Shown here in pieces: positions 10,266 through 57,766 of a stretch of DNA of 64,000 bases; position 1 is the first letter of the stretch, and each line of letters starts with the position of its first letter. A model generated the notes under the pieces. That model worked only from the letters and a program-made list of their open reading frames with translations. It had not been told where the DNA came from and did not search any database. Origin of the DNA: Escherichia phage vB-Eco-KMB43; the sequence record OR525698.1; one strand, given 5' to 3'. The translations under genes were made by a program, and so were the position numbers.

Positions 10266-11352
10266 TGTCTCAATAAAACTTTATCAGGATTATGAGGCAT
10301 TTCTAAATCATCGCTTTATAGAATTGGGTGCTACCTTTGTTACAATGACTCTGCGTGATTCGATTCGTGGGGTGAACGAAGGATTGTTGCAATTCTATGA
10401 TAATAAGGCGATGCATACAAAATTAAACGGGAGAGAGATCATTCAGATTTCTCTATCCACTGCTAATACAGATGAAGTGTTTAACCGAATCTATGGGATC
10501 TCTCATAGTAATGTAACAATTGACCAAAAATCAGACAACATTTTAACATTCCAGTTAAAGAGTTATCATGAAACCCTAAACCTTAAATTTTCTAGCTCAT
10601 TGACAAATAACGCTGTTAATAACGTAACTAGTATGATTGATGCCATCTATAAGGAAGTTCCTTTATGGAAACCTACTATAAAGGGTGATAACGTTGTTAT
10701 TCCTCGTTGTCCGTGGGTTAGTACCATAAATGACTATATGGATTTTGTTAGGGCATACGGGCAAAGCGTAGAAACCGAGTCTTTCGTGTATTGCTGGGAA
10801 GATTTTGATGGTATAACGATCGCTGGACACGATACAATATTAAAAAATGAGCCAATACCAGCTATAATCTGTGAGCCTAGACTCATGGGGCAATTTATTG
10901 ATATGTCGCCTAATCTGATGGTTTTTAATTTCGAGTGGCAGACTAAGAGCAATGCTAAAGTTAAAAATTCATTTAGCAATGTGACATACACAACTATTGA
11001 TTTTGTTACTAAGCAGTATAATAAAATTATTGTTGGTAATGGGGATAATATTGCACACTTTGCTCATGGCGGCGCTTATGGCGATTTAACTTATAAGAAT
11101 GCGTTTTTGGAAGGTTCTAAACTTGCCACAATAGAACAATATGATTCATATGCTACCGCCGTGTGTCACGGTAATTTTTCGTTGCGCCCTGGTATGGTTA
11201 TTCGATTCTTTGATGAGAAGCAACAAGCACGCAATGATTTTATTGTTGACGAAGTTGTGCATGAAATTAGCCGAGAGCAATCATTAACTCACCTGTATAT
11301 GATCGGTAACAGCGAAGAATTACAGGAAGTCAAATTTGAAGGTAAGATATAA
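10243..11352 (+). CDS. 27: baseplate hub protein gp27
   Basis: MQRTGFPNVSIKLYQDYEAFLNHRFIELGATFVTMTLRDS... aligns with T4 gp27 ([31 protein letters not shown]...). Confidence 0.9.
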   Translation: MQRTGFPNVSIKLYQDYEAFLNHRFIELGATFVTMTLRDSIRGVNEGLLQFYDNKAMHTKLNGREIIQISLSTANTDEVFNRIYGISHSNVTIDQKSDNILTFQLKSYHETLNLKFSSSLTNNAVNNVTSMIDAIYKEVPLWKPTIKGDNVVIPRCPWVSTINDYMDFVRAYGQSVETESFVYCWEDFDGITIAGHDTILKNEPIPAIICEPRLMGQFIDMSPNLMVFNFEWQTKSNAKVKNSFSNVTYTTIDFVTKQYNKIIVGNGDNIAHFAHGGAYGDLTYKNAFLEGSKLATIEQYDSYATAVCHGNFSLRPGMVIRFFDEKQQARNDFIVDEVVHEISREQSLTHLYMIGNSEELQEVKFEGKI

Positions 11353-13058
11353 TGACAGAAACTAAACCTATGTTAAAATTTGTTGTTCCTGTAAAAAAAT
11401 TAGAGATAAACGGGAAACATATCAAGATCCCAAAAATGGGGATTAAGCAACATCGATTATTAAAAGATGTTCGTAGCTGTGATGAAACATTAAAGATTCT
11501 TCTTGATTCAATCTGTCCTGGGTTAAACGCTGCCGAGTCTGAATTGGTTATGCTTAACCTTTGTGCGTATGAAGAATTGCAAAAACTCAATAATTTCTCT
11601 TCTCAGATGAATGAGAAATTACGTGGTTTTGGTGTTATGATGGAACGTAGATTTGGTGTTGTCAGTAAAATGGCTAGCGGTATTGGTGCGATTGAAGAAG
11701 CACTGAAAAAACCGGAACAACCGCAAACAATGCCATCACCTCAGCCAGTTTTGCCTACTGTACCGGAACAGCCTAATAATGACAACTATCAAGGTCTTCC
11801 AAAGAAAAAACCAGATGTTGAGGAACGGAAGAAAAAGAACGCCGCAGATAAGCGCAATGCGGATTCTATGGAAAATCTTCTTAAAGTTGTTCGTGGAGGA
11901 TTTAAAGAAACCATAGGTATCTCTAATAAGGTCTTAGGGATGTTATTTAAGATCACCTTGACCGCTATGGCAGAAGCCGCAAAATGGGGCGCTATTTTGA
12001 TGGGTATTGTTTTTGCCATTGATACCCTTATGATTCATTTCAGATATTGGAGTGATTTATTCGAAACAAAATTTGATGAATTTATGGATAAAGCCGGAGA
12101 ATGGGCTGGACCCATTAGTGATATTCTAACAACTATTCGTCAAGTTCGAGATTATTGGTCTAAAGGTGAATATGGAGAATTAATTAAATCTCTTGTTATG
12201 GGTATTGGTGATGCATTCTATAAAACCTTTATCCAACTTGATCGAATTATCACTACTGGTATTGCTAAAATTCTTCGCATGATCCCTGGTATGGGTGATT
12301 ATGCCGATAAGTTAGAATATGGTGCTTTAAAATCTGCTGTCGCTCAAGGTTATACGCCAAATGAAAGAGAACTCGAATTAATGGATAAGGTCGAGTCTGA
12401 ACACGAAGAGGACAAATACGGGGAGCGTACTGGTTGGACCGGAAAAGCCCGTGATATTGGTGAGGCTATCGGTGACTCCATTAAAGATAAAGTTAACGAG
12501 GGTCTTGTTAGTCTGGGTTGGAGAGATCAAAAGGATGTTGACGCAGAGAAGCGACAAGAAGAATTAAAGCGCGGAGAATATGAGTCTGTTTCTGCTGAAC
12601 AACGATCTGCTAGTCGTAAACTTAGAATTAAAAGTGAGGGCGCGATCAACAATATTAATGAAGTTATGGAGAATTTGAGCGGTGACTATGACAAAGAAAG
12701 AATGGGAGAGTTGAAAAAGGATATTGATGTTTACCGTGAGCAAGTTCAAGATCCTACATTAGTTGAAAGTGATCGTTCTCAGTTAGAGCGTCTTATTGAA
12801 AAATTTGATGAGATGTATGCTGATAAAACTAAGGGTGTTGTGCAAACACAGCCGGTTCCTGCAACTGAAACGGAAACAGCAAAACAAGCGGAACGTACTG
12901 AACAAATGCAGAAACAAGCTGCAATCCAGAAACAAACGACAAATCAGACCTCAAACGTAAATAATACACAAATTGTAACAAACAATAGAACTATTAAACA
13001 GGGTGCACCAACAACTAGAATTGATGCCCCCGGTACAATTAATATGGGGAACTTTTAA
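11352..13058 (+). CDS. 29: baseplate hub / tail-tube length determinant gp29-like (568 aa), occupying the T4 gene 28 and 29 positions
   Basis: Single ORF starting with ATGA overlap on the gene 27 stop; Pro/Gln-rich and charged low-complexity stretches typical of tape-measure-like proteins; no separate gene 28 ORF found. Confidence 0.6.
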   Translation: MTETKPMLKFVVPVKKLEINGKHIKIPKMGIKQHRLLKDVRSCDETLKILLDSICPGLNAAESELVMLNLCAYEELQKLNNFSSQMNEKLRGFGVMMERRFGVVSKMASGIGAIEEALKKPEQPQTMPSPQPVLPTVPEQPNNDNYQGLPKKKPDVEERKKKNAADKRNADSMENLLKVVRGGFKETIGISNKVLGMLFKITLTAMAEAAKWGAILMGIVFAIDTLMIHFRYWSDLFETKFDEFMDKAGEWAGPISDILTTIRQVRDYWSKGEYGELIKSLVMGIGDAFYKTFIQLDRIITTGIAKILRMIPGMGDYADKLEYGALKSAVAQGYTPNERELELMDKVESEHEEDKYGERTGWTGKARDIGEAIGDSIKDKVNEGLVSLGWRDQKDVDAEKRQEELKRGEYESVSAEQRSASRKLRIKSEGAINNINEVMENLSGDYDKERMGELKKDIDVYREQVQDPTLVESDRSQLERLIEKFDEMYADKTKGVVQTQPVPATETETAKQAERTEQMQKQAAIQKQTTNQTSNVNNTQIVTNNRTIKQGAPTTRIDAPGTINMGNF

Positions 13059-14116
13059 TGAAAATTAGTGTTATCAATGATGCCGTTGATAGCTTTAAAG
13101 CGGGGGTTAAAACCTCCGCTGGTTTTACCTCAAAAAATAAAGGGAAAACATTAACCGCTCAATTCCCCGCTGAACGTGCTAGCGGTAATGATGCTAGCGG
13201 TTATTATATCAACGACTTATATAATAATGGTCTGTTATTCACTGCATACGATTACACCTCTCGTACTACTGGATCGCTGCGTGATTTCAGGAAAAAGAAA
13301 AATGTTGCTAGCGGTTTTGGTGGTAGCGTTAATATCGCTGGTTTTGATTTAAATTTGGGTGGGAGAAATGCTGCATTTGACCGAGAGGCAATTGCTAATA
13401 TTCTTCTTCCTCGTAGTCAATCTGACGTTGACGCTGCCAGCCATAAGTTTAATGATGTTGGTGAATCTGTTATTTCTCGCGGCGGTGGTACTTTAGGCGG
13501 TGCTCTTTCTAATATGGCATCTACTGCCGTTTTTGGTGGTATCGAAAGTATTACTGGTGGATACCTTGCCGATCACGGTGAACAGATTTATAATACTGCG
13601 CGAAGCATGTATGCGGGTGCTGATGCACGAACTAAAAACTACGTATGGCATCTAACCCCACGTAGTATTGAAGACCTTCGCAATATTCTGATCATATACG
13701 AAACGTTTTTAGAATTGTCTTATGGTTCTAGTGGCATTTCCAGCACCGCAAAAGAATTAAAAGCGGAAGTTGATGCGTGGTATAAAAATACACTATTGAG
13801 AAAATCCACCCCAGAGGAAGCGAAGAGAAATGATACTCTGTTTGAAGGGATCACCGATTTTCTATCAAACGTAATTACTGTATCTAACCCGACAATATGG
13901 ATGATCTCTAACTTCGGCAAGCGTACATCGTTTGAAGGGCGTAGCGATGCATTTGGTCCCGCTCAGATCTCAAGTGTACGTCTGGACAAGTCGCCTGATG
14001 GTAAGTTTAATGGCCTTGCTATTTCTCCTAACTTGCCGAGTACCTTTGTTCTGGAAGTATCATTTAGAGAGATCTTGACACTTTCCCGTGGTACTATATT
14101 TGGGAGTGCGGCATAA
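13058..14116 (+). CDS. 48: baseplate tail-tube cap gp48
   Basis: 352 aa ORF (T4 gp48 is 364 aa) in syntenic position; start overlaps the upstream stop. Confidence 0.75.
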   Translation: MKISVINDAVDSFKAGVKTSAGFTSKNKGKTLTAQFPAERASGNDASGYYINDLYNNGLLFTAYDYTSRTTGSLRDFRKKKNVASGFGGSVNIAGFDLNLGGRNAAFDREAIANILLPRSQSDVDAASHKFNDVGESVISRGGGTLGGALSNMASTAVFGGIESITGGYLADHGEQIYNTARSMYAGADARTKNYVWHLTPRSIEDLRNILIIYETFLELSYGSSGISSTAKELKAEVDAWYKNTLLRKSTPEEAKRNDTLFEGITDFLSNVITVSNPTIWMISNFGKRTSFEGRSDAFGPAQISSVRLDKSPDGKFNGLAISPNLPSTFVLEVSFREILTLSRGTIFGSAA

Positions 14117-14568
14117 TGTTTGATTTAAATGACTTTAACGAACAAGCCGCTAACCTTGACTTTCAGCGATCGAACTTATTCAGCGTGGCATTTGCCACCA
14201 CTCCAAGTAATAAGACACAAGCGATCCTAGAAAGTATGGGTGGTGCGGTATATGATATTATACCAAATGCATTAAATGACTATTTCGGGATTACTCGTGG
14301 TGATTATACTGACGCATTAACAAATCTTGCTGTGCAGGGTGTTAGGCGTGCTGTTGATTCATCTGGTGTCAAAAAGTATCTTTTAGGTGCAATGTCATCC
14401 CGCGTAGTTCAATCTCTTCTGGGGCAATTTGATGTTGGTACATATGCGCTTGACTGGTTCAATCTGGCATATAAGACAAGCGGTCTTCTGGTGTATGCTG
14501 TTAAGGTTCCAGAAAACAGATTGAATTATGAAATGGACCGTAACCACAATGCGCCAAACATTCGATTA
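14116..14568 (+). CDS. 54: gp54 baseplate tail-tube initiator, N-terminal segment (gene interrupted)
   Basis: MFDLNDFNEQAANLDFQRSNLFSVAFATTPS...NRLNYEMDRNHNAPNIRL aligns with T4 gp54 residues 1 to about 150; homology ends at about 14568 and the frame then runs into junk and a stop at 14646. Confidence 0.8.
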
Positions 14569-14945
14569 ATGGTAAGTGTCTGGAAGAAAAAGATGGTCTT
14601 AAGCTGTCTGATGTGTATATTTGTACAGAGACTGAATTTACTTTAAATGGTAAAGTCTTTAAATTTAAAAATCCAATGTATACTTCTGACCCCATTATCG
14701 ATGACGCTGATTTCTTGAGTCATCATTATCACGATCCTAGTGTAGACTTCCATGATTTCCCAGCTTTTATTATGGATTGGGCTACAGGATTAAGAAAAAC
14801 TATTGCACTGGATACACCGGAAGGTACTATCTATGGTGGAATTAACATATTGGATCGCCTATCATGAATGACGCATTAACATCATTTCGCGGGATGCGCA
14901 AGGAAGCGGAAGAAAACCCGATTGATAAACTTAACAAATTAGATA
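14569..14945 (+). other. about 375-bp intervening sequence splitting gene 54 (candidate intron or insertion)
   Basis: gp54 homology stops after NIRL and resumes at NGRDFDPLVLSFRMDSS in a different frame; the insert contains in-frame stops; boundaries good to about 3 nt. Confidence 0.7.
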
Positions 14946-15425
14946 AACGGACGTGATTTCGATCCGCTTGTATTGAGCTTTAGAATGGACTCTAGCGCAT
15001 CAAACTATCGAGCAATGCAGGATTGGGTTAACTCAGTAGAAGACCCCGTTACAGGGCTTCGTGCGCTTCCTGTTGACGTTGAAGCAGATATTCAGGTTAA
15101 CTTACATAACCGAATGGGAGTTCCTCACACGATCATGATGTTTAATGGTTGTGTTCCTGTTGGTGTGAGTGCACCGGAATTAACCTATGAAAATAACAAC
15201 GAAATAACAACATTCGATGTTACTTTCGCATATCGTTCTATGCAAACTGGTGCTGTAGGAGAGCAAGCCGCGCGAGAATGGATTGAGGATAAGGCAATAA
15301 ACGCAATAACAAACACTTTCGGCAATAATTTACTTGATAGTGGGTTATCTGCTGCTGGTAATGCTTTATCGCGTCTAAATGGCGTTGGTGGGCGTGTGGT
15401 GAATACTGTCACTAACTGGTTCTGA
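14946..15425 (+). CDS. 54: gp54 baseplate tail-tube initiator, C-terminal segment
   Basis: GRDFDPLVLSFRMDSSASNYRAMQDWVNSVEDPVTGLRALPVDVEADIQVNLH... aligns with T4 gp54 ITGRELDPLVISFRMDSEACNYRAMQDWVNSVQDPVTGLRALP... to the C-terminus. Confidence 0.8.
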   Translation, partial: NGRDFDPLVLSFRMDSSASNYRAMQDWVNSVEDPVTGLRALPVDVEADIQVNLHNRMGVPHTIMMFNGCVPVGVSAPELTYENNNEITTFDVTFAYRSMQTGAVGEQAAREWIEDKAINAITNTFGNNLLDSGLSAAGNALSRLNGVGGRVVNTVTNWF

Positions 15426-15434
15426 TAATCGAAA

Positions 15435-15459
15435 GGCGGGGATTATCCCCGCCTTTTTA
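15435..15459 (+). terminator. rho-independent terminator after gene 54
   Basis: GGCGGGG-ATTAT-CCCCGCC hairpin followed by TTTTTAT. Confidence 0.7.
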
Positions 15460-15942
15460 TTTTGCTAAATCATTGCAATATTTTAGTGCCTTAGTTTGAA
15501 ATTCTGCGCTGTTAAGTTCTTCATAACGGTCATAATCACCGTTTAATGCTGCTTTTCTTGCTTCTTGCTCTATCTGCATGTCAGACATGATAATACAGCG
15601 ATCCCGTGCTTTCATCTTCTCAAGTTGTATAAACTCTTCTTTCTGTTTGCGCAATTCTTCTTGACGCTTCTTTTCTTCTCGTGCTTTCTCTTCCCGCGCT
15701 TCTTTGATTGCATCCTTGAACATCTGCGTTTGTGGTGCTAAACCAACTTTAACGCGACCCACGTCTCGACGTTCCATTTTAGAAATAAAGCATGATTCGA
15801 TCTGATCATCACTTGCATATGCTGCTTTACATTCACGAAGCAAGAAAACCGGATCTGATTTAGCATTCATCATAGCTTCCATGTTAGCACAACCAGTAAG
15901 CATGAATGCAGACGCAAGACCAATTAGTTTAATCATTTTCAT
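15457..15942 (-). CDS. predicted lipoprotein (161 aa)
   Basis: N-terminal signal peptide with lipobox LTGC; charged Lys/Glu-rich repeat region. Confidence 0.6.
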   Translation of the reverse strand: MKMIKLIGLASAFMLTGCANMEAMMNAKSDPVFLLRECKAAYASDDQIESCFISKMERRDVGRVKVGLAPQTQMFKDAIKEAREEKAREEKKRQEELRKQKEEFIQLEKMKARDRCIIMSDMQIEQEARKAALNGDYDRYEELNSAEFQTKALKYCNDLAK

Positions 15943-16763
15943 TTAGTCACCTCACCGAAAATTGTAAATTGTCTACGATTCTCATCGCCGAAAGATTCTA
16001 CTACGTCGTTTACCTTGACGCAAGTCCCGCGCGGTAAAATTACTTCACATTCGCAAGGATTCCATGCAATTGACCCAACAACAAAACCTTTATGATCTTT
16101 TACGTCAATTACCCACGATACATTACAAGAATGTTGCATCTTTCCGGTCATCGATTCATATCGATTCTCACAATAAAGGCTAGTGCTGTTTGATAGCCAT
16201 CCTCCAAAGATGATCGGTGTCATGCTGGTCGATACAAAGTTTTTAAAGGTAAACTCCTTATCTTCAATGATGCGCTCTATTGTCTGAATGTCAAGATGTT
16301 GACCGCGATAAAGAGTACCGTTTAACTTTTCGGTTTTATCCATGACACAATCCATCAAATCGACAATCTCTGATATCTCGTCGGTCATGTCTTCTTCCCC
16401 TAAGAGAGCACCATTTACCCATTCGTATTGTTCAGATACATAATCACAGATTGCATTATATTCTGCTGGGGTTATGTTGTTATGTTTGTAATGTTTGAAT
16501 ACATTATCTCCAAAGTCTTCGGAATGTACTTCATACATCACATTAATGATTTTCTTGACAAATCCATAATCTTGTGTCTCGCGCTCAAGGAAGCGGATAA
16601 CCTTCACATAATCATCAAAGTTAATCTGATCGCTGATCATCTCAGTGATCATGTAACCATTAATCCCCTCAATGTCATATGTTTCAATATAATTGTCCAT
16701 ACGTTCCATCATTGATTCGCGTGATTCTTCCGAAAGACGAAAATCCTGTAATTTCTTGAACAT
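15939..16763 (-). CDS. Alt-like ADP-ribosyltransferase paralogue (274 aa)
   Basis: C-terminal region YRGQ...FVSTSMTPIIFGG...ECEVILPRG parallels the Alt catalytic R-S-E region (YR..., FVSTSL, EILLPRG) seen in the adjacent alt gene. Confidence 0.6.
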   Translation of the reverse strand: MFKKLQDFRLSEESRESMMERMDNYIETYDIEGINGYMITEMISDQINFDDYVKVIRFLERETQDYGFVKKIINVMYEVHSEDFGDNVFKHYKHNNITPAEYNAICDYVSEQYEWVNGALLGEEDMTDEISEIVDLMDCVMDKTEKLNGTLYRGQHLDIQTIERIIEDKEFTFKNFVSTSMTPIIFGGWLSNSTSLYCENRYESMTGKMQHSCNVSWVIDVKDHKGFVVGSIAWNPCECEVILPRGTCVKVNDVVESFGDENRRQFTIFGEVTK

Positions 16764-16842
16764 TTTAAACCTCCCATATAACAGAAAACGGGGCTAGTAT
16801 AAAACTAGTCCCCGTTTGAGTCAACCATTATTTCTTAAAAAA

Positions 16843-18894
16843 TTACATTTTAAATTTATCTGGCATTGCGTCTACAGATACCAGATCAGCGATAAGCTGA
16901 CGTAGAGTTGCCTTATCTGCTTTCTTACGTTCGGTTTTAGCTTCGCTAATGAAGCTGGAGAAAGACAGGTCAGAAGCAGGTTTAATAACACCTTCACGGA
17001 TGAATGCATCACCGTCTGCGATCATCTCGCCAGATTCTTGTAATGCTGCCAGTTCATTTTTGTTCATAATATGTGCCTCAATGTAATAAGTTTCTTGTGA
17101 ATCCGTCGATGCCGTAGCACGAGTTACCGTATCAAAGGATAACACAACACCGCGAGGAAGTAAAATCTCGCATTCTTTGTAAGCAAATGCTTTGTTACCT
17201 ACTGGCAACACAGGGATGTTTTCCGCGCCAGCAATGGAGAAAGCAACATTAGCGCCACCTTCACCGCGAGAGCCAGCCATAGAATCAACACCAGCAACGG
17301 CACTAGCCACGTTTGCATTCCAGCCGCCAAAAATGTTAGGTGCAAGGGAAGTGCTCACATAGTTTTTAAAGTAAAACGCTTTTTGCTTACGTGCAGTTTC
17401 CCACATTTGAGTCCGGAAGTCCATACCACGATACAGAATAGTACCCGGATCAAGTTTAACGCCATAGTTGGAGAAGGCATTATCCAGTGCATCGCACATC
17501 TTGACCAATTCTTCTGGATCTGCGATGCCTTCAAACTCTTCCAGCTTACGATCAGTTAGGAAGTTGTTCATATTGATGTATGCTGCATCGGCATATTCGC
17601 TCAATACAAAACCTTCCGCGCCCGGCAGATCAAGATCAATATCTGCCATCATTTCACCCATGTTGCTAGCAATTGCTTCAAACATACCGGAAGCAACATT
17701 ACGTAGGGCATCGGTTTTAATCTGGGTGATATGACTACGCAGCATTTCAGCTTTTACATCTGCTGGCATAGACTGGTCTACTCGATCCATTGCCAGGGCG
17801 GTGATCTTGTTTTCGAATACTTCCTCGCTCATGATTTCTTTTAAGCGTTTGATTGATGCTGCGATAACTTCCGCAGACAACGGATCATATTGATCCTGAA
17901 CTTTTACCAGTTCGCTTACTGCGTATTTTGCATCTGCTTCGCTTTCAAAAATAGTACGCATGAAACCATAGCGAGTGATAATATCACTTGTCCAGTCATT
18001 CAGAGAACGGGCGGTTGAACGTTCTAATGCTTGACGATCAATCAGAGTATTAAACTGTTTCTTAGGTTCGGCTTCGGTGATATCTTCTTCCGGTTTAAGA
18101 TTAATTTTTTCTGGATGATTCACATAGTCGCTGTTATAGGTCGCTTGAGTTTTCAGCATTTCTTCTTTAGTCAAACGAGATTTAGCCGCTACGCGTTGTT
18201 CTGCTTCCGCGTTTCGTTCTTCTTCTGACACAAGACTAGCCGCATACGCCTCATCTTTAGTCAGAGATTCACCAGTAGCCTTAGATACCCAGCGATCACC
18301 TAAATCACTTTCTACTTTAGTGAACAAGGATTCATCAAGTTTAATCCCTTTAATCTTATCAATCGCCATCCCGCGACGCTTGACAACAACTAAAGCGATC
18401 TTTTTGCTGGTCATTACTTCCTGCTGGAATACTTCAAACTTCGGTGTACGACGCACCAAACGCTCTATAACGCGCTTAACCAGTTCGGTCTTACCTTTCA
18501 TGCGGGATACGTTAAAACGGAACATAACAGCGTCTAATTGCGCTTTACGGGCTGTTTCCATAACCACATCAAAAGCACTTGCCATAACTGCAATCGGGTT
18601 ATCTCCTAGACCATTTTTAAGCTGTACAATACGACCGCTTTTGTTCATTTCGCACAGTACAACATGTGCGGTCTTGTCACCCATACGAATGATTTTAGGT
18701 GTTTTGTTGGTGAAGTTACAAAGACGGACAATCACATCTTTATCGCGTGTCTGTACTGCAAAAAGCTGTTTAGGATTCTGCTTAGGCTTTAAGCACTGTA
18801 CCGGAGCAATACTGCCAAAGTTTTCTTCCTCTTCCGTCAACAGCCATTTCTCGAAAGATTCAATCATTAGATCGTCGATTTCTAAGTTAAACAT
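16843..18894 (-). CDS. alt: Alt ADP-ribosyltransferase (head-packaged)
   Basis: 683 aa (T4 Alt is 682 aa); LFTKVESDLGD and C-terminal FYFKNYVSTSLAPNIFGG...ECEILLPRG match T4 Alt. Confidence 0.85.
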   Translation of the reverse strand: MFNLEIDDLMIESFEKWLLTEEEENFGSIAPVQCLKPKQNPKQLFAVQTRDKDVIVRLCNFTNKTPKIIRMGDKTAHVVLCEMNKSGRIVQLKNGLGDNPIAVMASAFDVVMETARKAQLDAVMFRFNVSRMKGKTELVKRVIERLVRRTPKFEVFQQEVMTSKKIALVVVKRRGMAIDKIKGIKLDESLFTKVESDLGDRWVSKATGESLTKDEAYAASLVSEEERNAEAEQRVAAKSRLTKEEMLKTQATYNSDYVNHPEKINLKPEEDITEAEPKKQFNTLIDRQALERSTARSLNDWTSDIITRYGFMRTIFESEADAKYAVSELVKVQDQYDPLSAEVIAASIKRLKEIMSEEVFENKITALAMDRVDQSMPADVKAEMLRSHITQIKTDALRNVASGMFEAIASNMGEMMADIDLDLPGAEGFVLSEYADAAYINMNNFLTDRKLEEFEGIADPEELVKMCDALDNAFSNYGVKLDPGTILYRGMDFRTQMWETARKQKAFYFKNYVSTSLAPNIFGGWNANVASAVAGVDSMAGSRGEGGANVAFSIAGAENIPVLPVGNKAFAYKECEILLPRGVVLSFDTVTRATASTDSQETYYIEAHIMNKNELAALQESGEMIADGDAFIREGVIKPASDLSFSSFISEAKTERKKADKATLRQLIADLVSVDAMPDKFKM

Positions 18895-18940
18895 TTTATA
18901 TCCTCTAGTTGATAACCTATAAACCTATATTTATGAAAAA

Positions 18941-18955
18941 GGGGCTTAACGCCCC
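18941..18955 (-). terminator. candidate terminator between ORF 18962-19174 and alt
   Basis: GGGGC-TTAAC-GCCCC hairpin preceded on the plus strand by AAAAA. Confidence 0.55.
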
Positions 18956-18961
18956 CATTTA

Positions 18962-19204: not shown

Positions 19205-19245
19205 GGGTGTATTATGATATACACCCTCTGTTATGTCAACAACTT
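19205..19245 (-). promoter_or_regulatory. early promoter cassette (sigma70-like, PeSL-type)
   Basis: Reverse complement reads TTGACA, 17-nt spacer, CATAAT, then conserved leader ACACCCATACCGAAACG. Confidence 0.6.
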
Positions 19246-19454: not shown

Positions 19455-19490
19455 TGTATTATAGGGGATCACCGATCCCCCTGTCAACAA
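19455..19490 (-). promoter_or_regulatory. early promoter cassette with palindromic spacer
   Basis: Reverse complement TTGACA-GGGGGATCGGTGATCCCC-TATAAT; spacer is a perfect GGGGATC/GATCCCC palindrome. Confidence 0.65.
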
Positions 19491-19498
19491 CTTTTTAG

Positions 19499-20050
19499 TT
19501 ATTTTTTTAATTGCTCATCTTGCAATAGGGCAATCACATGCTGGCGATGTTCTTCCGATTGAGGCACACCGAAAAAGTTTGTTTTGTAGAAATACTCTAA
19601 TCGGTCTTCTCGTGTGCTCTCTTCCATCATGATCGCGGGTAGTCCGAGATTTCGGAAACGTCGCTTTTCTGCTGGCGTAAAATCACTGTAATACAACATA
19701 GAATCATCATTACCAGCAATGCTAAACTCATCCTTCATAAAGGAGAATATTGCGTTTAAACGCTGTTTACCGTCCACGATTTCGATCTCATAGCGAGAGC
19801 CATCATCAATCTTAGCCATTGCGATAGCACCGACCGGAAAATCATTAATCAGGTTTTCGATAAACATACGTTTGTTTTCGGTGTCCCATACCAAAGGACG
19901 CTGATAATCTGGGTTCATGTTGATATAGCCATCTTCTAACCATGCTTCGTAAACAGAGATGACAAAGTTTTTAGTATTGGTATAGTAACGGCGTTTAGGC
20001 GTTAAACGGTTCATGTTATAGTCTCCTGAATGGATCATCACGTAAATCAA
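19499..20050 (-). CDS. DUF262 (ParB-like nuclease domain) protein
   Basis: 183 aa; DYQRPLVW...FPVGAIAMAK...EIVDGKQRLNAI matches the DUF262 DGQQR signature region. Confidence 0.55.
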   Translation of the reverse strand: MIYVMIHSGDYNMNRLTPKRRYYTNTKNFVISVYEAWLEDGYINMNPDYQRPLVWDTENKRMFIENLINDFPVGAIAMAKIDDGSRYEIEIVDGKQRLNAIFSFMKDEFSIAGNDDSMLYYSDFTPAEKRRFRNLGLPAIMMEESTREDRLEYFYKTNFFGVPQSEEHRQHVIALLQDEQLKK

Positions 20051-20348
20051 TATCTTTTAAGAACTCATCCCATGAATGGCGGATATTGTTCTTAATTCTC
20101 CAGATAAGCGCAGGGATTGAACGCTCTCCCATCTGGAAGTATGGATCATATGATCCGTATGCCCAATATGCTACTACAATTCCACAATCAGCGCAATAGT
20201 ATTCTATTTCACTTGCTGGCGACCAAAGTCCATCAATATGATCGGTGATCTTGCTTTCGATGTTATGGCTATGACAATCAGGGCAACGGATGCAATGACC
20301 TTGTTTATCGTAATTTGACGTTAGCGAATACTTAAACAATCTCATCAT
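20016..20348 (-). CDS. small zinc-ribbon-like protein (110 aa)
   Basis: CxxC...CxxC arrangement (CIRCPDC, CADCG); start overlaps the upstream stop. Confidence 0.5.
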   Translation of the reverse strand: MMRLFKYSLTSNYDKQGHCIRCPDCHSHNIESKITDHIDGLWSPASEIEYYCADCGIVVAYWAYGSYDPYFQMGERSIPALIWRIKNNIRHSWDEFLKDIDLRDDPFRRL

Positions 20349-21061
20349 AGATCCTTATTTGCTTCAAATACTGCCTTTGCGAATCCTCGCGGGGTAAGTG
20401 ACCTGATAGTCTTTGTTTTCGTTCCTTTCCCGCCTAGCTTAGAATGCTGTTTACTGTACCCTTTATTAATCTGCAAAGGTTTCTTTTCTGGCATTATAAA
20501 GCCTTGTCCGGTCCATAAGCAAGTCTTTTTCGGGTACATATCACGGGCGGCGATATACTCAGGAAAAGTAGGATGTTTATCATCTTCCGGCAAATAACCG
20601 CCATATTCCCACGGATGGAACATATAATCAGGCTTACGCCACATGCTAGAGATAACGCTTACAGGATTCTCTATCATGTAGGGAACTCCTAGCCATTCAC
20701 CCAAATAAGCGGTTATTTTAGCTGCCCGTACATCATGAACTTGAATCAATGGTCCTTGCTCTCGTTTCTTTCGTTCAAAGTGTGCAGCGCCACTAACAGC
20801 TAAATTGGTGCACGGTGGGAATGCAAAGATAATATCCGGTTTCCCCCATTCAAGGTCCATTGCTCTTTCCAGCCAGTTCAAATCAATCCAGGTGTTTACA
20901 TAGGTAATGTTTGGATGTTCAAATCTGGTATTATACTTTTTGTATGTACCGTGGTCGGCGTCATCCGCATTAAAGCAGACTACCTTATGACCTGCTTTAG
21001 CCCATTCTAGCCCCATTATCCCCGATCCGTCAAAGTTACAGAATATTAATTTTTGTTTCAT
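20345..21061 (-). CDS. C5-cytosine methyltransferase-like protein (divergent, 238 aa)
   Basis: FCNFDGSG (motif I-like), IIFAFPPCTNLAVSG (motif IV-like Pro-Cys), MIENP (ENV-like); no clear motif VIII or X, so family assignment is tentative. Confidence 0.45.
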   Translation of the reverse strand: MKQKLIFCNFDGSGIMGLEWAKAGHKVVCFNADDADHGTYKKYNTRFEHPNITYVNTWIDLNWLERAMDLEWGKPDIIFAFPPCTNLAVSGAAHFERKKREQGPLIQVHDVRAAKITAYLGEWLGVPYMIENPVSVISSMWRKPDYMFHPWEYGGYLPEDDKHPTFPEYIAARDMYPKKTCLWTGQGFIMPEKKPLQINKGYSKQHSKLGGKGTKTKTIRSLTPRGFAKAVFEANKDL

Positions 21062-21587: not shown

Positions 21588-21622
21588 TTGTATTGTAGGG
21601 GAGTTATCCTCCCCTGTCAACA
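21588..21622 (-). promoter_or_regulatory. early promoter cassette with palindromic spacer
   Basis: Reverse complement TTGACA-GGGGAGGATAACTCCCC-TACAAT. Confidence 0.6.
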
Positions 21623-21832: not shown

Positions 21833-21868
21833 TGTATTATAGGGGATCTCCCGATCCCCGTCAACAAC
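21833..21868 (-). promoter_or_regulatory. early promoter cassette with palindromic spacer
   Basis: Reverse complement TTGACG-GGGATCGGGAGATCCCC-TATAAT then conserved leader and GGAGAATCAAAATG. Confidence 0.65.
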
Positions 21869-22233: not shown

Positions 22234-22503
22234 TTAGATATTTTCAGAAATAAATTTTAAAACTTGACGTAAATGTTTCTCATCTTTGATAGTCGCCGGA
22301 AGTTCTTCTTTTACTTCCTGTGCAAGATAGATATTTCCGTTCCAAGTGAAAGATCCGTCTTCGTTTACGCGATAGCTGAACATCCACTCGCAATCATTTT
22401 CGATTTCATATACACACAGAAGAGTGTAATCTTCAAAGCTATTGATTTCAAGGTCGAAGCCGTGACGTTTTGCAAAGTTGGTAGTGGTTTTAGTCAGTGC
22501 CAT
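22234..22503 (-). CDS. hypothetical protein (89 aa)
   Basis: Intact ORF with GGAGAATCAAACAATG initiation context. Confidence 0.55.
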   Translation of the reverse strand: MALTKTTTNFAKRHGFDLEINSFEDYTLLCVYEIENDCEWMFSYRVNEDGSFTWNGNIYLAQEVKEELPATIKDEKHLRQVLKFISENI

Positions 22504-22540
22504 TGTTTGATTCTCCTAAGTGGTATCTCGTCTTGATGGG

Positions 22541-22575
22541 TGTATTATGCTATAGGCGTGATCTGGTGTCAATGC
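22541..22575 (-). promoter_or_regulatory. early promoter cassette
   Basis: Reverse complement TTGACA-N17-CATAAT. Confidence 0.55.
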
Positions 22576-22820
22576 TTTTTTTAATTTTATGCAATAAAAA
22601 GACGACACTAAGGTCGGCACATTTTAAAAATTCTTGCCATATATGCAAGCCTCATAATCTAGAGGATGACCGCCAATCCTACCCGGCTTAATATTCCAAC
22701 CGCATCGATATTTGCTGACCATGCTAACAGTTTCGGTTCTTAGAGCATTTTCTTTGCAAATCATACCCCATAAATTCTTTTCTATAAGGACAGTCCGCTT
22801 TGCAAGTTGGCGGTTCTACG

Positions 22821-23012
22821 TCATTTAGCGGGTCGGAAGCAGTTGGCTTTATTATCAATTCTTTGTTTGCAATAATCATAAGCACATCCCATTGAAGACA
22901 ATTTAACATCTTCGCAATAAGTGTTGAATCCGTCAAACACGGTCACTTCGTATTTGACTCCATCAGCGATAGCTTTTACTTTATACCATCCATGCTTGTA
23001 TAAAATCTTCAT
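22821..23012 (-). CDS. small Cys-rich hypothetical protein (63 aa)
   Basis: ORF with promoter cassette and RBS upstream; overlapped in another frame by ORF 22724-22936, which may hold a second small gene from an internal ATG. Confidence 0.5.
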   Translation of the reverse strand: MKILYKHGWYKVKAIADGVKYEVTVFDGFNTYCEDVKLSSMGCAYDYCKQRIDNKANCFRPAK

Positions 23013-23041
23013 CTTTATTTCCTCAATCTCGTTTCGATGGG

Positions 23042-23077
23042 TGTATTATGCTATAGGCTAGACCAGGTTGTCAACAA
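23042..23077 (-). promoter_or_regulatory. early promoter cassette
   Basis: Reverse complement TTGACA-N18-CATAAT. Confidence 0.55.
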
Positions 23078-25454: not shown

Positions 25455-25488
25455 TGTAGTATAGGGGATCACCGATCCCCTGTCAACA
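25455..25488 (-). promoter_or_regulatory. early promoter cassette with palindromic spacer
   Basis: Reverse complement TTGACA-GGGGATCGGTGATCCCC-TATACT. Confidence 0.6.
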
Positions 25489-26617: not shown

Positions 26618-26651
26618 GTATTATAGGGGAGTTTAACCTCCCCTGTCAACA
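26618..26651 (-). promoter_or_regulatory. early promoter cassette with palindromic spacer
   Basis: Reverse complement TTGACA-GGGGAGGTTAAACTCCCC-TATAAT. Confidence 0.65.
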
Positions 26652-27011: not shown

Positions 27012-27045
27012 TGTAGTATAGGGGATACGTGATCCCCTGTCAACA
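27012..27045 (-). promoter_or_regulatory. early promoter cassette with palindromic spacer
   Basis: Reverse complement TTGACA-GGGGATCACGTATCCCC-TATACT. Confidence 0.6.
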
Positions 27046-38271: not shown

Positions 38272-38305
38272 GTATTATAGCGGGGATTTCTCCCCGCGTC
38301 AACAG
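38272..38305 (-). promoter_or_regulatory. early promoter cassette, copy flanking the methyltransferase gene (downstream side)
   Basis: ATTATAGCGGGGATTTCTCCCCGCGTCAACAG, identical over 32 nt to the copy at 39169-39202. Confidence 0.65.
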
Positions 38306-39150
38306 CTATTTGACAATCCATCGCAAGCATCAATGTAAGCACCTACAAAACTTTCTATAAAAAGTGCTCCGACTTGAGGAACTATCGCATTGCCATAACC
38401 GCGCAATCGTCCCATTGTTGAGGATACCCCATCAGCCAACAAGGGAATCGTGGGTTCAACAATTCGTTTTTTCCCGTCTCTGCATAGATACTCTGTTCCA
38501 CTGTCCCAAAACCGTAATACATCTTCACTTGTTCTGATAAATTTCCCGGCGCTAGTGATTTCCTCCCCGTTGCAAGTCTCGCTTCCATTCTCCGTTGCAT
38601 TGCTTCCGGCGATCTTGCTGATATATTCGTTACAGTAGGTGTTTGCCAACTCGTTAATAGCCCCGAAGAAAAGTCTGTCCCGCTTGTGCGGCGCACCGAC
38701 GATATCACATGATAATACCGCAGCCCCGACACTGTAACCTTCTCTTTCCAATTCCTCGTGAAGATCATCCAACCACCCCGTTTCGATAGCTTTTGCAACC
38801 TGTTCCCCAAAGAGCATTGGAGGTTTGCACGCTGACACGAGTTTAAGAAATGTCGGTGCAAGGTGTCTTTCGTCGAACTTTCCTTTTTGCTTTCCGGCTC
38901 TTGAAAATGGTTGACATGGTGGCGATCCGGTCCATAGCCTTGTTGTTTCTGGTACTCCAGCGAGTTGCAATGCTCTTGACCACCCCCCAATCCCCGCGAA
39001 GAAGTGACATTGTGTAAATCCTTCCAGATCTCTAGGGGTGACTTCTGTAATTGATCTTTCATCGACATACCCATAAGGAATTAATTTGTTTGCTATAAGT
39101 TCACGTAACCAGTTAGCCGCGCCTTTATCCCACTCATTGTAATAATTCAT
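38299..39150 (-). CDS. DNA (cytosine-5)-methyltransferase
   Basis: 283 aa; FFAGIGGWS (motif I), GSPPCQPFS (motif IV, catalytic Pro-Cys), GEQV (ENV-like), KRDRLFF (motif VIII), GNAIVPQV (motif X) in canonical order. Confidence 0.8.
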   Translation of the reverse strand: MNYYNEWDKGAANWLRELIANKLIPYGYVDERSITEVTPRDLEGFTQCHFFAGIGGWSRALQLAGVPETTRLWTGSPPCQPFSRAGKQKGKFDERHLAPTFLKLVSACKPPMLFGEQVAKAIETGWLDDLHEELEREGYSVGAAVLSCDIVGAPHKRDRLFFGAINELANTYCNEYISKIAGSNATENGSETCNGEEITSAGKFIRTSEDVLRFWDSGTEYLCRDGKKRIVEPTIPLLADGVSSTMGRLRGYGNAIVPQVGALFIESFVGAYIDACDGLSNSC

Positions 39151-39168
39151 TCTTACAATTCACCTCAC

Positions 39169-39202
39169 ATTATTATAGCGGGGATTTCTCCCCGCGTCAA
39201 CA
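39169..39202 (-). promoter_or_regulatory. early promoter cassette, copy flanking the methyltransferase gene (upstream side)
   Basis: Reverse complement TTGACG-CGGGGAGAAATCCCCGC-TATAAT. Confidence 0.65.
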
Positions 39203-54931: not shown

Positions 54932-57730
54932 ATGGCAGATTTACAGAGAATCCAATTTAAAAGAACAAGTACGGCAGGTCGCAAGCCGGATGCGAATATT
55001 CTAACTCCGGGTGAACTTGCTATTAACCTAGCGGATCGAGAACTATATACAAAAGATGACAGCAATAATGTAATTACTTTGGGACACTTTCGCGGTGAGT
55101 TGCCATCTGATGCAAATTTAGATAATTATGGACCTACTGGTAAATTTACTGGCGTTTGGTCTAAATCAACTTCAACAAATGCGCAGCCAGCAAATAAATT
55201 CCCAGAAGAGAATGCTGTAGGTGTATTAGAAGTATTTGTGGCTGGTCAATTTGCTGGCACTCAGCGTTATACTGTTCGGTCTGGTAACGTTTATATCCGT
55301 TCTTTGTCTGCGAAATGGAATGGCGTAGATGGTCCATGGGGTCCGTGGCGCAATATTCAAACTGGCACACGTCCACTATCAACTACACTAGACTTGAATA
55401 CTTTAGGTGATGCTTCTCATTTTGGGTTATGGCGAAATAGTTTAAGTTCCATTGCATCATTTTCTCGAAATTACCCAGAAGAAGGTGGTCTCGCGCAAGG
55501 TCTTTTAGAAATTTATGAAGGTGGTAACTATTCTCGCACGCAACGTTATACTACCCGAATGGGTGTTGTATATGTTCGTTGTCTTGCTGGTGCATGGGAT
55601 CCAGAAGCTCCGAATTGGGGACCGTGGCAACAAGTAGGTATGGTTACTCCAAACACATTCTATGACGGGGATCTTAATAATTTTCGTTCTCCTGGCTTGT
55701 ATAACATTTTAGGGACTGATGCCGTTATTAACCGTCCAGTTGCAGAAGGTGTTCCGGTTGAGATGACCGGATTGCTTGAGGTTAAACAGCGTGCTTCCGG
55801 TGCCGCTATTTTCCAACGTTTCACTACCGCAGGAACGGGTGCAACTACGCGATCTCGCGTGTTTGAACGTGCGATGACAAATAACATCTGGGGAAATTGG
55901 TACGAAGTATATACGTCCTATTCTATGCCGATCACTCTGGGTATGGGTGGTGTTAAATCTCAATTAGCGGAGCTAGACTGGCAAACCTTTGATTTTGTCC
56001 CTGGTAGTATGTTTAGTGTTCCTTTGAACAAAATAAAGAATATGCCAGCAAATATGGATTGGGGGACGATTGACGGAAACTTGGTTATGTTTTCTGTCGG
56101 TCCTAGCGAACATACCGGAACGGGTCGAACTGTTCAAGTGTGGCGCGGTACTGTATCTCAGGCGAACTATCGTTATTTCGTTGTTCGTATCGCTGGTAAT
56201 CCAGGAAGTAGGACTAATACTTGTCGTCGTGTTGTTGTGGAAGATGGTCGCCACACATGGACAGCGCAACAAGATTTTAATGGTGCAGTTAACTTCGGTG
56301 CTCCTACCAATTTTAACTCTACTGTTAACCTTAATAACACTACCACATTTAAAACAGAAGTTAAATTCCGCTCATCTAATGCATTCCGTATGTATGGCGG
56401 TAATTTTGGCACAATTTTCCGTAATGATGGTGAAAGTCTTTATATTCTTTCCACCGACGAAAATGATCAAGATGGAAACTTTAATACAAATAGACCTTTC
56501 CGCTATCAATTAAAAACTGGCGATGTTACTTTGGGTGGCACTAGCGGTGCTAACGCTTTAGTATTAAAAGGCGGTTCTCTTGCTGCTACCTTTAGCGGTG
56601 ATGTTAATTTAAGTAAAGGTACGCTGACGTTTGAAGCGGGTGGTAAGCAATCACGCGATTATTTCCGGTTTAATCATTGGGGTGATAGCAATAACGCTCG
56701 TGATAACATTATTCAGTTAGAAGATAGTAAAGGCGCTCATTTTTCCACTGAACGTACTTTAGCGACGGGCGCAATTAAAACTAAGTTCTTTGGTGAAGTT
56801 GAATCCGATGGTCGATTGACTATTAAACGTCCTGGTGATGCTATTGTATTATCAACAACTGCTGGTAATGCTTTGCATATTCGCGGTGATATAGACGGGA
56901 GTGGTAACTGGTATATTGGCAAGGGTGGTGCTGATAATTCGCTAGCATTTTATAGCTATGCTACTCAGGCGGCAGTACATATAACAAACAATGGTGAGAT
57001 TGCGTTAAACCCGCAAAATACCGCAATGGTTAACGTTAACCGCGACCGTGTACACATTAACGGTTCTGGATGGATTGCTAGACAACCGGGTGATTGGGGC
57101 AACCAATGGCGAGTAGAAGCTCCATTATTCGTTGATCATGGTTATGTTGGTCAAGATAGTTATTATCCTATTCTTAAAGCAAGAAGCGTTATAACCAATC
57201 AAGGATATAGCACCGCTGTTGACTTTGGTATGCGTCGTATTCCATCACAGTGGGGGCAAGCAATCATTCGCGTCGGATCCACGGAGGCTTCTCCTGATGC
57301 TGGACACCCACAAGCTATATTTGAATTCCATCATGATGGATTCTTTTATACACCAGGAAATGGTAGCTTTAGCGATGTGTATATTCGTTCTGACTCCCGT
57401 CTCAAGATTAATAAAGAAGAATTAGAATATGGAGCGGTCGAAAAAGTTTGCCGACTGAAAGTTTATACATACGATAAGGTTAAGTCTATTAAAGATCGTA
57501 GTGTTATTAAACGTGAAGTTGGTATTATTGCTCAGGATCTTGAAAAAGAATTACCGGAAGCTGTGTCTAAAGTTGAAGTTGATGGTTCTGATGTTCTGAC
57601 AATTTCTAACTCGGCAGTGAATGCTCTTTTAATTAAGGCTATTCAGGAAATGAGTGAAGAAATTAAAGAATTGAAAACGCCTCTCTTTACTAAAATTGCT
57701 CGCAAAATTAGTAAATATTTTAAATTCTAA
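54932..57730 (+). CDS. 37: long tail fibre distal subunit gp37 with C-terminal intramolecular chaperone (peptidase S74-like) domain
   Basis: MADLQRIQFKRTSTAGRKPDANILTPGELAINLADRELYTKDDSNNVITLG matches the T4 gp37 N-terminus; C-terminal ...IRSDSRLKINKEELEYG...VGIIAQDLEKELPEAV... matches the endosialidase-chaperone signature. Confidence 0.85.
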   Translation: MADLQRIQFKRTSTAGRKPDANILTPGELAINLADRELYTKDDSNNVITLGHFRGELPSDANLDNYGPTGKFTGVWSKSTSTNAQPANKFPEENAVGVLEVFVAGQFAGTQRYTVRSGNVYIRSLSAKWNGVDGPWGPWRNIQTGTRPLSTTLDLNTLGDASHFGLWRNSLSSIASFSRNYPEEGGLAQGLLEIYEGGNYSRTQRYTTRMGVVYVRCLAGAWDPEAPNWGPWQQVGMVTPNTFYDGDLNNFRSPGLYNILGTDAVINRPVAEGVPVEMTGLLEVKQRASGAAIFQRFTTAGTGATTRSRVFERAMTNNIWGNWYEVYTSYSMPITLGMGGVKSQLAELDWQTFDFVPGSMFSVPLNKIKNMPANMDWGTIDGNLVMFSVGPSEHTGTGRTVQVWRGTVSQANYRYFVVRIAGNPGSRTNTCRRVVVEDGRHTWTAQQDFNGAVNFGAPTNFNSTVNLNNTTTFKTEVKFRSSNAFRMYGGNFGTIFRNDGESLYILSTDENDQDGNFNTNRPFRYQLKTGDVTLGGTSGANALVLKGGSLAATFSGDVNLSKGTLTFEAGGKQSRDYFRFNHWGDSNNARDNIIQLEDSKGAHFSTERTLATGAIKTKFFGEVESDGRLTIKRPGDAIVLSTTAGNALHIRGDIDGSGNWYIGKGGADNSLAFYSYATQAAVHITNNGEIALNPQNTAMVNVNRDRVHINGSGWIARQPGDWGNQWRVEAPLFVDHGYVGQDSYYPILKARSVITNQGYSTAVDFGMRRIPSQWGQAIIRVGSTEASPDAGHPQAIFEFHHDGFFYTPGNGSFSDVYIRSDSRLKINKEELEYGAVEKVCRLKVYTYDKVKSIKDRSVIKREVGIIAQDLEKELPEAVSKVEVDGSDVLTISNSAVNALLIKAIQEMSEEIKELKTPLFTKIARKISKYFKF

Positions 57731-57766
57731 CAACAAGGGGGCATTGCCCCCTTTGGAGTATAAATT

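Follow-up and report, generated by a model that had tools for sequence, protein, structure and literature searches.

A 64,000-nucleotide (nt) stretch of DNA from Escherichia phage vB-Eco-KMB43 (sequence record OR525698.1), called the window here, carries two neighboring ADP-ribosyltransferase (ART) genes on its minus strand. The longer one is alt, which encodes a 683-amino-acid (aa) counterpart of the Alt protein of phage T4. The shorter one encodes a 274-aa protein, which we designate the short ART. We interpret the short ART as an early-made, cytoplasmic, arginine-specific enzyme that has Mod-like timing and a sequence of the Alt family, and we put the probability of this interpretation at roughly 55%. 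The absence of large regions of Alt from the short ART, a conserved early promoter, the insulation of the gene by a terminator, and the lack of a late promoter together suggest that the short ART is most likely made in the cell right after infection. An earlier note on this DNA had proposed instead that the short ART might be a second packaged toxin. What is added here is a correction of that reading and a testable prediction of timing and localization, not a discovery.

Locus and prior annotation

Both genes of the pair that the earlier note had described are present:

15939..16763, minus strand: short ART, 274 aa, homologue of RB49 ORF183c (open reading frame [ORF], BLASTP, PF03496, PHROG 15144, AF2/Foldseek, hhalign)
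16843..18894, minus strand: alt, 683-aa Alt-like ART (ORF, PHROG 802, Pfam PF03496)

The genus of the window is Krischvirus, the RB49/Phi1/JSE group of T4-like coliphages, and the 3.8 kb around the locus are 98 to 99% identical at the nucleotide level to 58 such genomes. The members of this group are also known as "pseudo-T-even" phages. The order of the locus, 29-48-54 / (ORF182, ORF183) / alt, agrees with that in Phi1, T2, and T4. Paralogues of alt recur in the slot between alt and gene 54: T2 has two full-length genes there, and T4 has a degenerate N-terminal remnant (alt.-1/alt.-2).

The pairing of alt with the short ART is not new; it was published in 2006, and genome records annotate it as a matter of routine. 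Nolan et al. (2006) listed RB49ORF183c as a paralogous duplication of alt and classed it with alt.-1 and alt.-2 of T4 (PMC1524935). The short gene is named "ADP-ribosyltransferase" in the RefSeq records of Phi1, JSE, RB49, GEC-3S, ECD7, and KFS-EC, and many GenBank submitters label it "RNA polymerase-ADP-ribosyltransferase." The 683-aa gene is labeled "alt" in the RefSeq records of Phi1 and JSE. There is no mention of ORF183 in the supplements of Nolan et al. (2006) and Arbiol et al. (2010).

Catalytic core and predicted fold of the short ART

The catalytic motifs of the short ART are located as follows:

16302..16310, minus strand: YRG, aa 152 to 154 (Y152-R153-G154)
16224..16232, minus strand: STS, preceded by FV, aa 178 to 180 (S178-T179-S180)
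16026..16052, minus strand: ECEVILPRG, aa 238 to 246 (E238-C-E240, the E-x-E of the ARTT loop with the catalytic Glu)

The YRG, FVSTS, and ECEVILPRG motifs that the earlier note had quoted were all recovered in the 274-aa ORF, and a matching set was found in alt. Alignment with T4 Alt, both T2 Alts, and T4 ModA and ModB revealed no loss of the catalytic Arg or Glu. The two Glu residues were invariant in this alignment, and the Arg and STS aligned throughout the Alt-type sequences. Across 47 Alt-family sequences R153, S178, T179, E238, and E240 were invariant, and S180 was conserved in at least 90%.

The short ORF matched PF03496 over aa 82 to 266 (E = 4e-16; 59.3 bits, with a gathering cutoff of 23.4) and phrog_15144, "ADP-ribosyltransferase," from end to end (E = 3e-198). 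According to precomputed Pfam content, the short family contains PF03496 only and not PF26846. A search of NCBIfam gave no match for the short ART, and a sequence search of the PDB returned no close relative, the best match being Tre1 (E = 0.07).

An AF2 model built on the 47-sequence alignment (pLDDT 89.9, pTM 0.88) predicted a compact fold that is all-helical over aa 1 to 143 and then forms a beta core. Among PDB structures, Foldseek matched this model best to C3-like Arg/Asn ARTs, namely, Vis (4xzk, E = 8e-11) and also C3bot2, Plx2a, Certhrax, CDTa/iota, and Tre1, over ~210 to 220 columns. Viral models of the Alt type superposed more fully (TMq 0.69 to 0.75 versus ~0.5 for the C3-type toxins), among them a 298-aa protein from Aeromonas phage phiAS4 and the Acinetobacter phage proteins annotated as "split RNA polymerase ADP-ribosylase." The segment between the STS and E-x-E motifs (aa 181 to 211) is family specific (STSLYCENRY) and was modeled at lower confidence. 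These results support the designation of the short ORF as another ART that belongs to the Alt family by sequence, with intact catalytic residues and a predicted C3-like fold of the R-S-E type.

The extent of the similarity to Alt depended on the method. BLASTP of the short ORF against the neighboring Alt matched only aa 151 to 257 (37% identity over 109 aa, E = 7e-17). When the short family was compared with 61 long Alts by hhalign, residues 67 to 273 of the short ART corresponded to Alt residues 395 to 610 (probability 100%, E = 6.6e-41). The short ART lacks Alt residues 1 to 394 and the C-terminal tail, residues 611 to 683, and the short protein ends four residues past the last strand of the core. 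Residues 1 to 89 alone showed no similarity to Alt (hhalign probability 0.15%), and the first ~66 aa are modeled as family-specific helices. The N-terminal half of the short ART had previously been described as unrelated to Alt. This description does not apply to the half as a whole, because homology begins at residue 67, but it does apply to roughly one quarter of the protein, residues 1 to ~66. The impression of an unrelated half probably arose because pairwise BLASTP reached only aa 151 to 257. One possibility considered was that the N-terminal half is homologous to the central region of Alt, as hinted by the PHROG 802 envelope (aa 8 to 268 versus profile positions 330 to 602). This was rejected because profile-profile comparison found homology from residue 67 only. 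The start at residue 67, together with the superposition of the viral models, places the extent of the unrelated N terminus between the earlier "half" and none.

Conservation and phylogeny of the short ART

The short ART is 100% identical to the RB49 protein, and it is full length with at least 97% identity in 58 of 58 sequenced Krischvirus isolates. Bands of tblastn hits at 80 to 90% and 60 to 80% identity raised the possibility that divergent alleles replace the gene within the genus, but these bands came from hits joined with the neighboring alt and disappeared in the stricter search that gave the 97% figure.

Beyond the genus, a metagenomic family of short ARTs was found, with proteins of 271 to 288 aa that are 83, 63, 48, 45, 45, and 44% identical and that have the private STSLYCENRY motif. 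No member of the short family, down to 41% identity, departs from the catalytic Arg, STS, and E-x-E. An exhaustive phmmer scan of 1.84 billion representatives added only three further clusters at 50% identity and one fragment. In the same scan the E value leaped from 1e-55 to 1e-17, the point at which ordinary Alts start. A distance tree built from the shared core placed the short family on a deep monophyletic branch, and the neighboring Alt was the sequence most distant from it (0.81 versus about 0.74). The order alt, short ART, ~160-aa protein, and convergent gene 54 was kept in every relative with enough sequence (metagenomic relatives with ARTs of 41 to 63% identity).

The comparison of these sequences makes it clear that the short ART gene is under purifying selection. 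The conservation and the deep clade further suggest that the short ART is an old paralogue or an old acquisition, neither a recent tandem copy nor a decaying gene. In the most divergent homologue of the short ART (P0021; L016:1530..2345, contig ERZ27260015 k141_207255), the called start "MMSPFSVIGRFK..." falls inside the -10 box and stem-loop of the promoter element described below. Translation of this homologue probably starts at an ATG farther downstream ("MFSVDW..."), which, as elsewhere in the short family, has a GGGAGG Shine-Dalgarno sequence before it.

Expression signals upstream of the short ART

Between alt and the short ART lie 79 nt with a compact set of expression signals:

16780..16824, minus strand: promoter-early stem-loop (PeSL) cassette (sequence, fold, conservation)
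16819..16824, minus strand: -35 element TTGACT, 17 nt from the -10 element
16796..16801, minus strand: -10 element TATACT, overlapped by the stem-loop
16788..16815, minus strand: stem-loop ACGGGGACTAG-TTTTATA-CTAGCCCCGT with a GGGG/CCCC stem and a minimum free energy of -18.9 kcal/mol, containing the -10 box
16780..16787, minus strand: T-tract after the stem-loop (TTTTCT)
16770..16775, minus strand: Shine-Dalgarno sequence GGGAGG of the short ART (GGGAG, GGGAT, or GAGGA in relatives)

The sigma-70 element consists of the AT-rich sequence AAGAAATAATGG followed by TTGACT, 17 nt, and TATACT, with 10 of 12 matches to the consensus. The early -35 consensus of RB49 favors GTTGAC (PMC1524935), and the short-ART promoter reads GGTTGACT at this position. 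The element is almost unchanged in six lineages whose ART proteins are 41 to 63% identical. Across these six lineages 91.7% of the stem cells were paired, versus at most 53% when the register was slid. The stem includes three compensatory pairs, a number attained in 10 of 500 shuffles.

PeSLs, described in RB49 and Phi1, combine a strong sigma-70-like promoter with a terminator stem-loop that usually lies between the -35 and -10 elements or overlaps the -10 element (Arbiol et al. 2010, PMC2839356). In lacZ fusions, representative PeSLs (PeSL193/192, PeSL206/205, and PeSL211/210) were both strong promoters and effective terminators, and PeSL-headed cassettes are associated with adaptive accessory genes (PMC2839356). 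The element upstream of the short ART fits the PeSL class as judged from its sequence. It shares with the RB49 and Phi1 PeSLs near-consensus -35 and -10 elements, an AT-rich upstream region, a polyG/polyC stem-loop over the -10 element, and a Shine-Dalgarno sequence and ATG at the 3' end. However, what follows the short-ART element is not a mobile ORFan but a conserved unit of two genes whose function is partly known. Comeau et al., in 2014, reportedly also dealt with the PeSL cassettes of RB49 and Phi1.

The window contains eight canonical PeSLs, all on one strand, and the most stable hairpin is that of the short ART, at -18.9 kcal/mol. The canonical elements (TTGAC-GGGGA...TCCCC-TATAAT) are on the minus strand at 19487..19458, 21620..21592, 21864..21836, 25486..25458, 26649..26620, 27043..27015, 38302..38274, and 39200..39172, and there is another at 19239..19211. 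As in RB49 and Phi1, the canonical PeSLs head small early ORFs in hyperplastic regions. The PeSLs at 38302 and 39200 have identical promoter and stem-loop cores, and the sequence between them, ~38315..39171, has no RB49 counterpart. This pattern is consistent with PeSL-mediated insertion of a cassette.

No NATAAATA motif (a gp55-type, TATAAATA-like late promoter) was found within 80 nt upstream of the short ORF.

The long Alt and its upstream signals

The features that characterize alt and the region upstream of it are as follows:

17425..17433, minus strand: catalytic YRG of alt, aa 488 to 490 (Y488-R489-G490)
17347..17355, minus strand: STS of alt, aa 514 to 516
17149..17175, minus strand: ECEILLPRG of alt, aa 574 to 582 (E574-C-E576)
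18928..18935, minus strand: CATAAATA, resembling a late promoter, 33 nt before the ATG of alt
18936..18956, minus strand: intrinsic-terminator-like hairpin GGGGGCGTTAAGCCCC with a T-run, setting alt apart from the early genes before it (L006, a divergent relative, has a corresponding hairpin)

The 683-aa ORF matched positions 2 to 674 of the 674-position PHROG 802 profile (E = 3e-179), indicating a full-length Alt, and it matched PF03496 over aa 425 to 610 (E = 2e-9; 37.5 bits, same cutoff as above). This ORF is the orthologue of T4 Alt. Both genes adjoin gene 54, the domain order and catalytic motifs of the proteins are alike, and the 683-aa gene has a late-promoter-like motif. In their precomputed Pfam content the long Alts carry PF26846 (Tevenvirinae_ADPRT, the N-terminal region of ~390 aa) in addition to PF03496. 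The conserved C-terminal Alt tail (YDGD..ETG ... MPxKF) is present in the Alt of the window, T4 Alt, both T2 Alts, P0007, and P0008.

Late NATAAATA motifs lie 20 to 45 nt upstream of structural genes of the window (baseplate, tail fiber), and the alt motif shares this geometry. At the corresponding position the divergent relative L006 has AATAAATA. The late promoters of RB49 vary at position -13, which is commonly A or T (PMC1524935). The alt motif has C at -13, outside the reported variants, and its designation as a late promoter is thus one of position and similarity only.

By homology, the 683-aa Alt would be packaged in the head and injected together with the DNA. In T4, alt is a late gene, whereas ModA and ModB are early (PMC9697503). 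About 40 copies of T4 Alt are located in the prohead core (PMC9958956), and the gp21 protease removes a small N-terminal peptide (PMC9958956, PMC9697503). An L/I-x-E sequence occurs inside the first 11 aa in 102 of 106 long Alts, over a background of 0.013 per residue, and the N-terminal motif of the long Alts, L-x-E|(V/L/A)-F-(D/E), is strongly conserved. The 683-aa Alt carries this gp21-cleavage-like motif. The motif is consistent with gp21 removal of a small N-terminal peptide. Cleavage contexts of the gp21 type were found in Krischvirus gp23 (GFIAE|AE) and gp24 (LLRE|ST), which shows that the specificity of the gp21 protease is conserved in this genus.

Proposed mode of action of the short ART

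In the proposed mechanism the stem-loop upstream of the short ART would halt transcription coming from alt. The strong sigma-70 promoter within the same stem-loop would drive expression of the short ART and of a coupled lipoprotein gene immediately after infection. The short ART, acting in the cytoplasm, would then use NAD+ to mono-ADP-ribosylate arginines (E-x-E type) of host, or possibly phage, proteins. Within the C3/VIP2 family an E-x-E motif corresponds to arginine specificity. In its timing the role would be Mod-like, and it would be performed by a catalytic domain of the Alt family. The short protein consists only of an Alt catalytic core, equivalent to Alt residues 395 to 610, joined to a private helical N terminus of ~66 residues, and would represent an old, separately evolving paralogue. 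We infer from the features described above that the short ART is enzymatically active and arginine specific, and that it is made early and is absent from the virion.

Several considerations weigh against this interpretation. The PeSL of the short ART is outside the experimentally tested set and is not named in the text of PMC2839356. Arginine specificity of the short ART is suggested by a single feature, the E-x-E motif. No Krischvirus virion proteome or infection transcriptome was found in the literature searched. A protein made early could still enter proheads later, and the route by which T4 Alt gets to the prohead core is described as not understood (PMC9958956). In four of the six short-family lineages a hydrophobic-x-Glu sequence resembling a gp21 site aligns at residues ~8 to 13, without the following F-D/E, and because of this alignment N-terminal processing of the short ART is possible. 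Read-through of the terminator from the late promoter of alt could also result in some late expression of the short ART.

A more specific and more tentative proposal, for which we consider the chances to be well below even, is that the short ART and the lipoprotein form a PeSL-driven early module for host takeover or counterdefense. An Alt-derived core, freed from delivery in the virion, would have been retargeted, and in Krischvirus it may stand in for the absent second Mod enzyme or neutralize a host defense protein. If this is true, T4-like phages would have a third functional class of ART besides packaged Alt and the Mod family.

Alternative explanations

It is also conceivable that the short ART is active and early but serves counterdefense and not the takeover of transcription. 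For example, it could inactivate a host toxin-antitoxin or immunity protein, or it could modify a substrate other than protein (nucleic acid, or NAD-capped RNA transfer, as with ModB). There is precedent for such activities. According to a reference cited in PMC9697503, T4 Alt modifies MazF. ModB RNAylates host proteins (PMC10468400), and the phage-encoded anti-CRISPR AcrIF11 is an ART (PMC12421852). Furthermore, the family-specific segment at aa 181 to 211 of the short ART is in a zone that holds some of the substrate-recognition elements of C3-like ARTs, and the gene is in a PeSL-headed cassette, a class tied to adaptive accessory genes. However, none of the results pointed to a target, PADLOC gave no matches, and no defense-related partner is adjacent to the gene. 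The E-x-E motif and the C3/Vis/iota-like fold also favor modification of protein arginines over the activity of nucleic-acid ARTs. A role in antidefense or with a noncanonical substrate is a variant of the early cytoplasmic model, from which it is not discriminated here, and we regard it as rather unlikely.

The proposal in the earlier note, that the short ART is a second head-packaged, injected Alt-like "toxin" with a different target range, appears doubtful, and clearly so. The short ART gene is directly beside alt at the edge of the block of late baseplate genes, a context that Iyer et al. considered suggestive of packaging (PMC9503650), and T2 has two full-length tandem Alt genes at the same position. 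The N terminus of the short ART, MFKKLQDFRLSE|E, has an L-x-E at residues 10 to 12, a position similar to that of the M-I-E of the neighboring Alt, and the gp21 recognition motif is conserved in Krischvirus in the gp23 and gp24 contexts. However, the conserved N-terminal motif of the long Alts in its full form appears to be missing from the short ART, and even the loose L/I-x-E is missing in two of the six lineages. Packaged T4 Alt is the product of a late gene (PMC9697503). The short ART, in contrast, lacks Alt residues on both sides of the core (1 to 394 and 611 to 683), and its gene has its own conserved sigma-70 early promoter in the PeSL, a terminator stem-loop that insulates it from alt, and no late-promoter motif. 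These findings argue against packaging.

A capsid-targeting sequence (CTS) in the short ART was considered as well. The T4-type sequence, which we take to be MKTYQEFIAE, has a loose likeness to MFKKLQDFRLSE, but this likeness is not conserved in the short family. Within positions 1 to 100 kb of Phi1 there are no annotated IP genes to supply a genus-specific CTS.

The possibility that the short ORF is a functionless, decaying remnant of an alt duplication, like the alt.-1/alt.-2 remnant that annotation notes place in the same slot of T4 and with which Nolan et al. grouped RB49ORF183c as paralogous duplications (PMC1524935), is largely refuted by conservation and is extremely improbable, because every one of the 58 isolates has the complete gene with at least 97% identity and the gene belongs to an old clade, with Arg, STS, and E-x-E invariant down to 41% identity, a compact high-confidence model, and a dedicated conserved promoter and Shine-Dalgarno sequence, and because the T4 remnant keeps an N-terminal part of alt whereas the short ART keeps the catalytic part.

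Comparison with other ADP-ribosyltransferases

The short ART and T4 Alt share the catalytic core and the Arg/STS/E-x-E triad of the Alt/VIP2 family (R-S-E clade). The short ART differs from T4 Alt in its private 66-aa N terminus, in having an early PeSL promoter instead of a late one, and in belonging to a separate deep clade.

T4 ModA and ModB are small, stand-alone, early ARTs that are cytoplasmic and not packaged. They have the R-S-E logic in common with the short ART; this resemblance is functional only and, as to timing, is based on promoter sequence. Specific similarity between the short ART and Mod proteins was not detected: BLASTP gave E values of 1.2 for T4 ModB and 0.07 for the Phi1 Mod, and no Mod PHROG was among the hits. 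The Mod enzymes are ~200 aa and are encoded next to srd, whereas the short ART is 274 aa and is encoded next to alt. The only Mod-type ART of Phi1 is encoded beside srd (L012:9096..9599); this protein of 167 aa, with LYRG and E-R-E, has an identity of 33% to T4 ModB (E = 8e-11) and of 23% to ModA. T4 has two Mods and Phi1 one, so that Krischvirus, with Alt, the Alt-core paralogue, and a single ModB-like Mod, matches the T4 total of three ARTs in a different composition.

Other duplications of alt include the second alt of T2 (685 aa), alt.-1/alt.-2 of T4, ORF187c/ORF188c of 44RR, and the "split RNA polymerase ADP-ribosylase" of the Acinetobacter phages ZZ1 and Henu6. Among these, the T2 copy is complete and the T4 remnant is N-terminal and degenerate, whereas the Krischvirus short form is catalytic only and has its own early promoter cassette. 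Stand-alone catalytic halves are known elsewhere.

C3bot, Vis, Plx2a, and Certhrax (PF03496, ADPrib_exo_Tox) have the fold (Foldseek E values of 1e-10 to 1e-8) and the catalytic arrangement in common with the short ART. However, these C3-like toxins are only 15 to 20% identical to it, and they are secreted bacterial proteins rather than phage enzymes for host takeover. In addition, C3 enzymes have Q-x-E and target asparagine, whereas the short ART has E-x-E.

Phage ARTs are a model for host takeover, and interest in them has been renewed by RNAylation with ModB, the action of Alt on MazF, and ART-type anti-CRISPRs. A minimal Alt catalytic domain with its own early promoter would be convenient for probing target choice in the Alt family and the role of the noncatalytic parts of Alt, for example, in packaging.

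The downstream gene for a predicted lipoprotein

Two further features complete the unit headed by the PeSL:

15457..15942, minus strand: ORF182 homologue, a 161-aa predicted lipoprotein (signal peptide and lipobox MLTGC; PHROG 16112)
15431..15457, no strand assigned: GC-rich hairpin GAAAGGCGGGGATTATCCCCGCCTTTT at the convergent ORF182/gene 54 junction, which, from its sequence, probably terminates transcription in both directions and ends the early ART-lipoprotein unit

The ORF182 homologue is annotated as "putative lipoprotein" in phage W115, and PHROG 16112 has no assigned function. The ATG of this gene overlaps the stop codon of the short ART (ATGA), and the two genes are therefore probably cotranscribed and translationally coupled. 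Five divergent relatives have the ORF182 gene with its lipobox, L[TF]GC, after the short ART, and most of the divergent relatives examined share a C-terminal RDRC(I/L)(I/L)MSD motif in it. The lipoprotein could be an early protein for superinfection exclusion or envelope modification. Homology of ORF182 to T4 alt.-3 was unsupported (E = 9.8).

Other observations in the window

Gene 54, which encodes the baseplate tail-tube initiator, is at 14116..15425 and spans 1310 nt, versus 933 nt in Phi1. The insert of ~386 nt (14563..14948) is 99.7 to 100% identical to the gene 28/29 junction, which is single copy in all 58 Krischvirus records. In the window this gene 28/29 piece is present only inside gene 54, and the native site (~11568) lacks 544 nt of RB49 (22503..23046), resulting in an in-frame gp28-gp29 fusion ORF of 568 aa (11352..13058). 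This arrangement hits three essential baseplate/tail genes and is matched by no public genome. It is likely to be a misassembly, a processing artifact, or a defective variant. A group I intron in gene 54 was rejected because there was no Rfam hit and the insert is a relocated piece of genes 28/29.

The distal tail-fiber gene 37 (932 aa) and the adhesin gene 38 (260 aa), at 54932..58549 on the plus strand, are of a T-even-type allele, unlike RB49. They have ~90% nucleotide identity to Tequatrovirus phages (C2-3, KarlGJung) and 93% to the Krischvirus phages FL04 and LF73P4, and represent an exchange of a host-range cassette between genera.

Upstream of alt there are two minus-strand ORFs, at 19499..20050 (183 aa) and 20345..21061 (238 aa). 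The 183-aa ORF contains the motif DYQRPLVWD, which resembles DUF262/ParB-like nuclease domains. The Phi1 counterpart of the 238-aa ORF is annotated as a DNA methyltransferase (ORF189).

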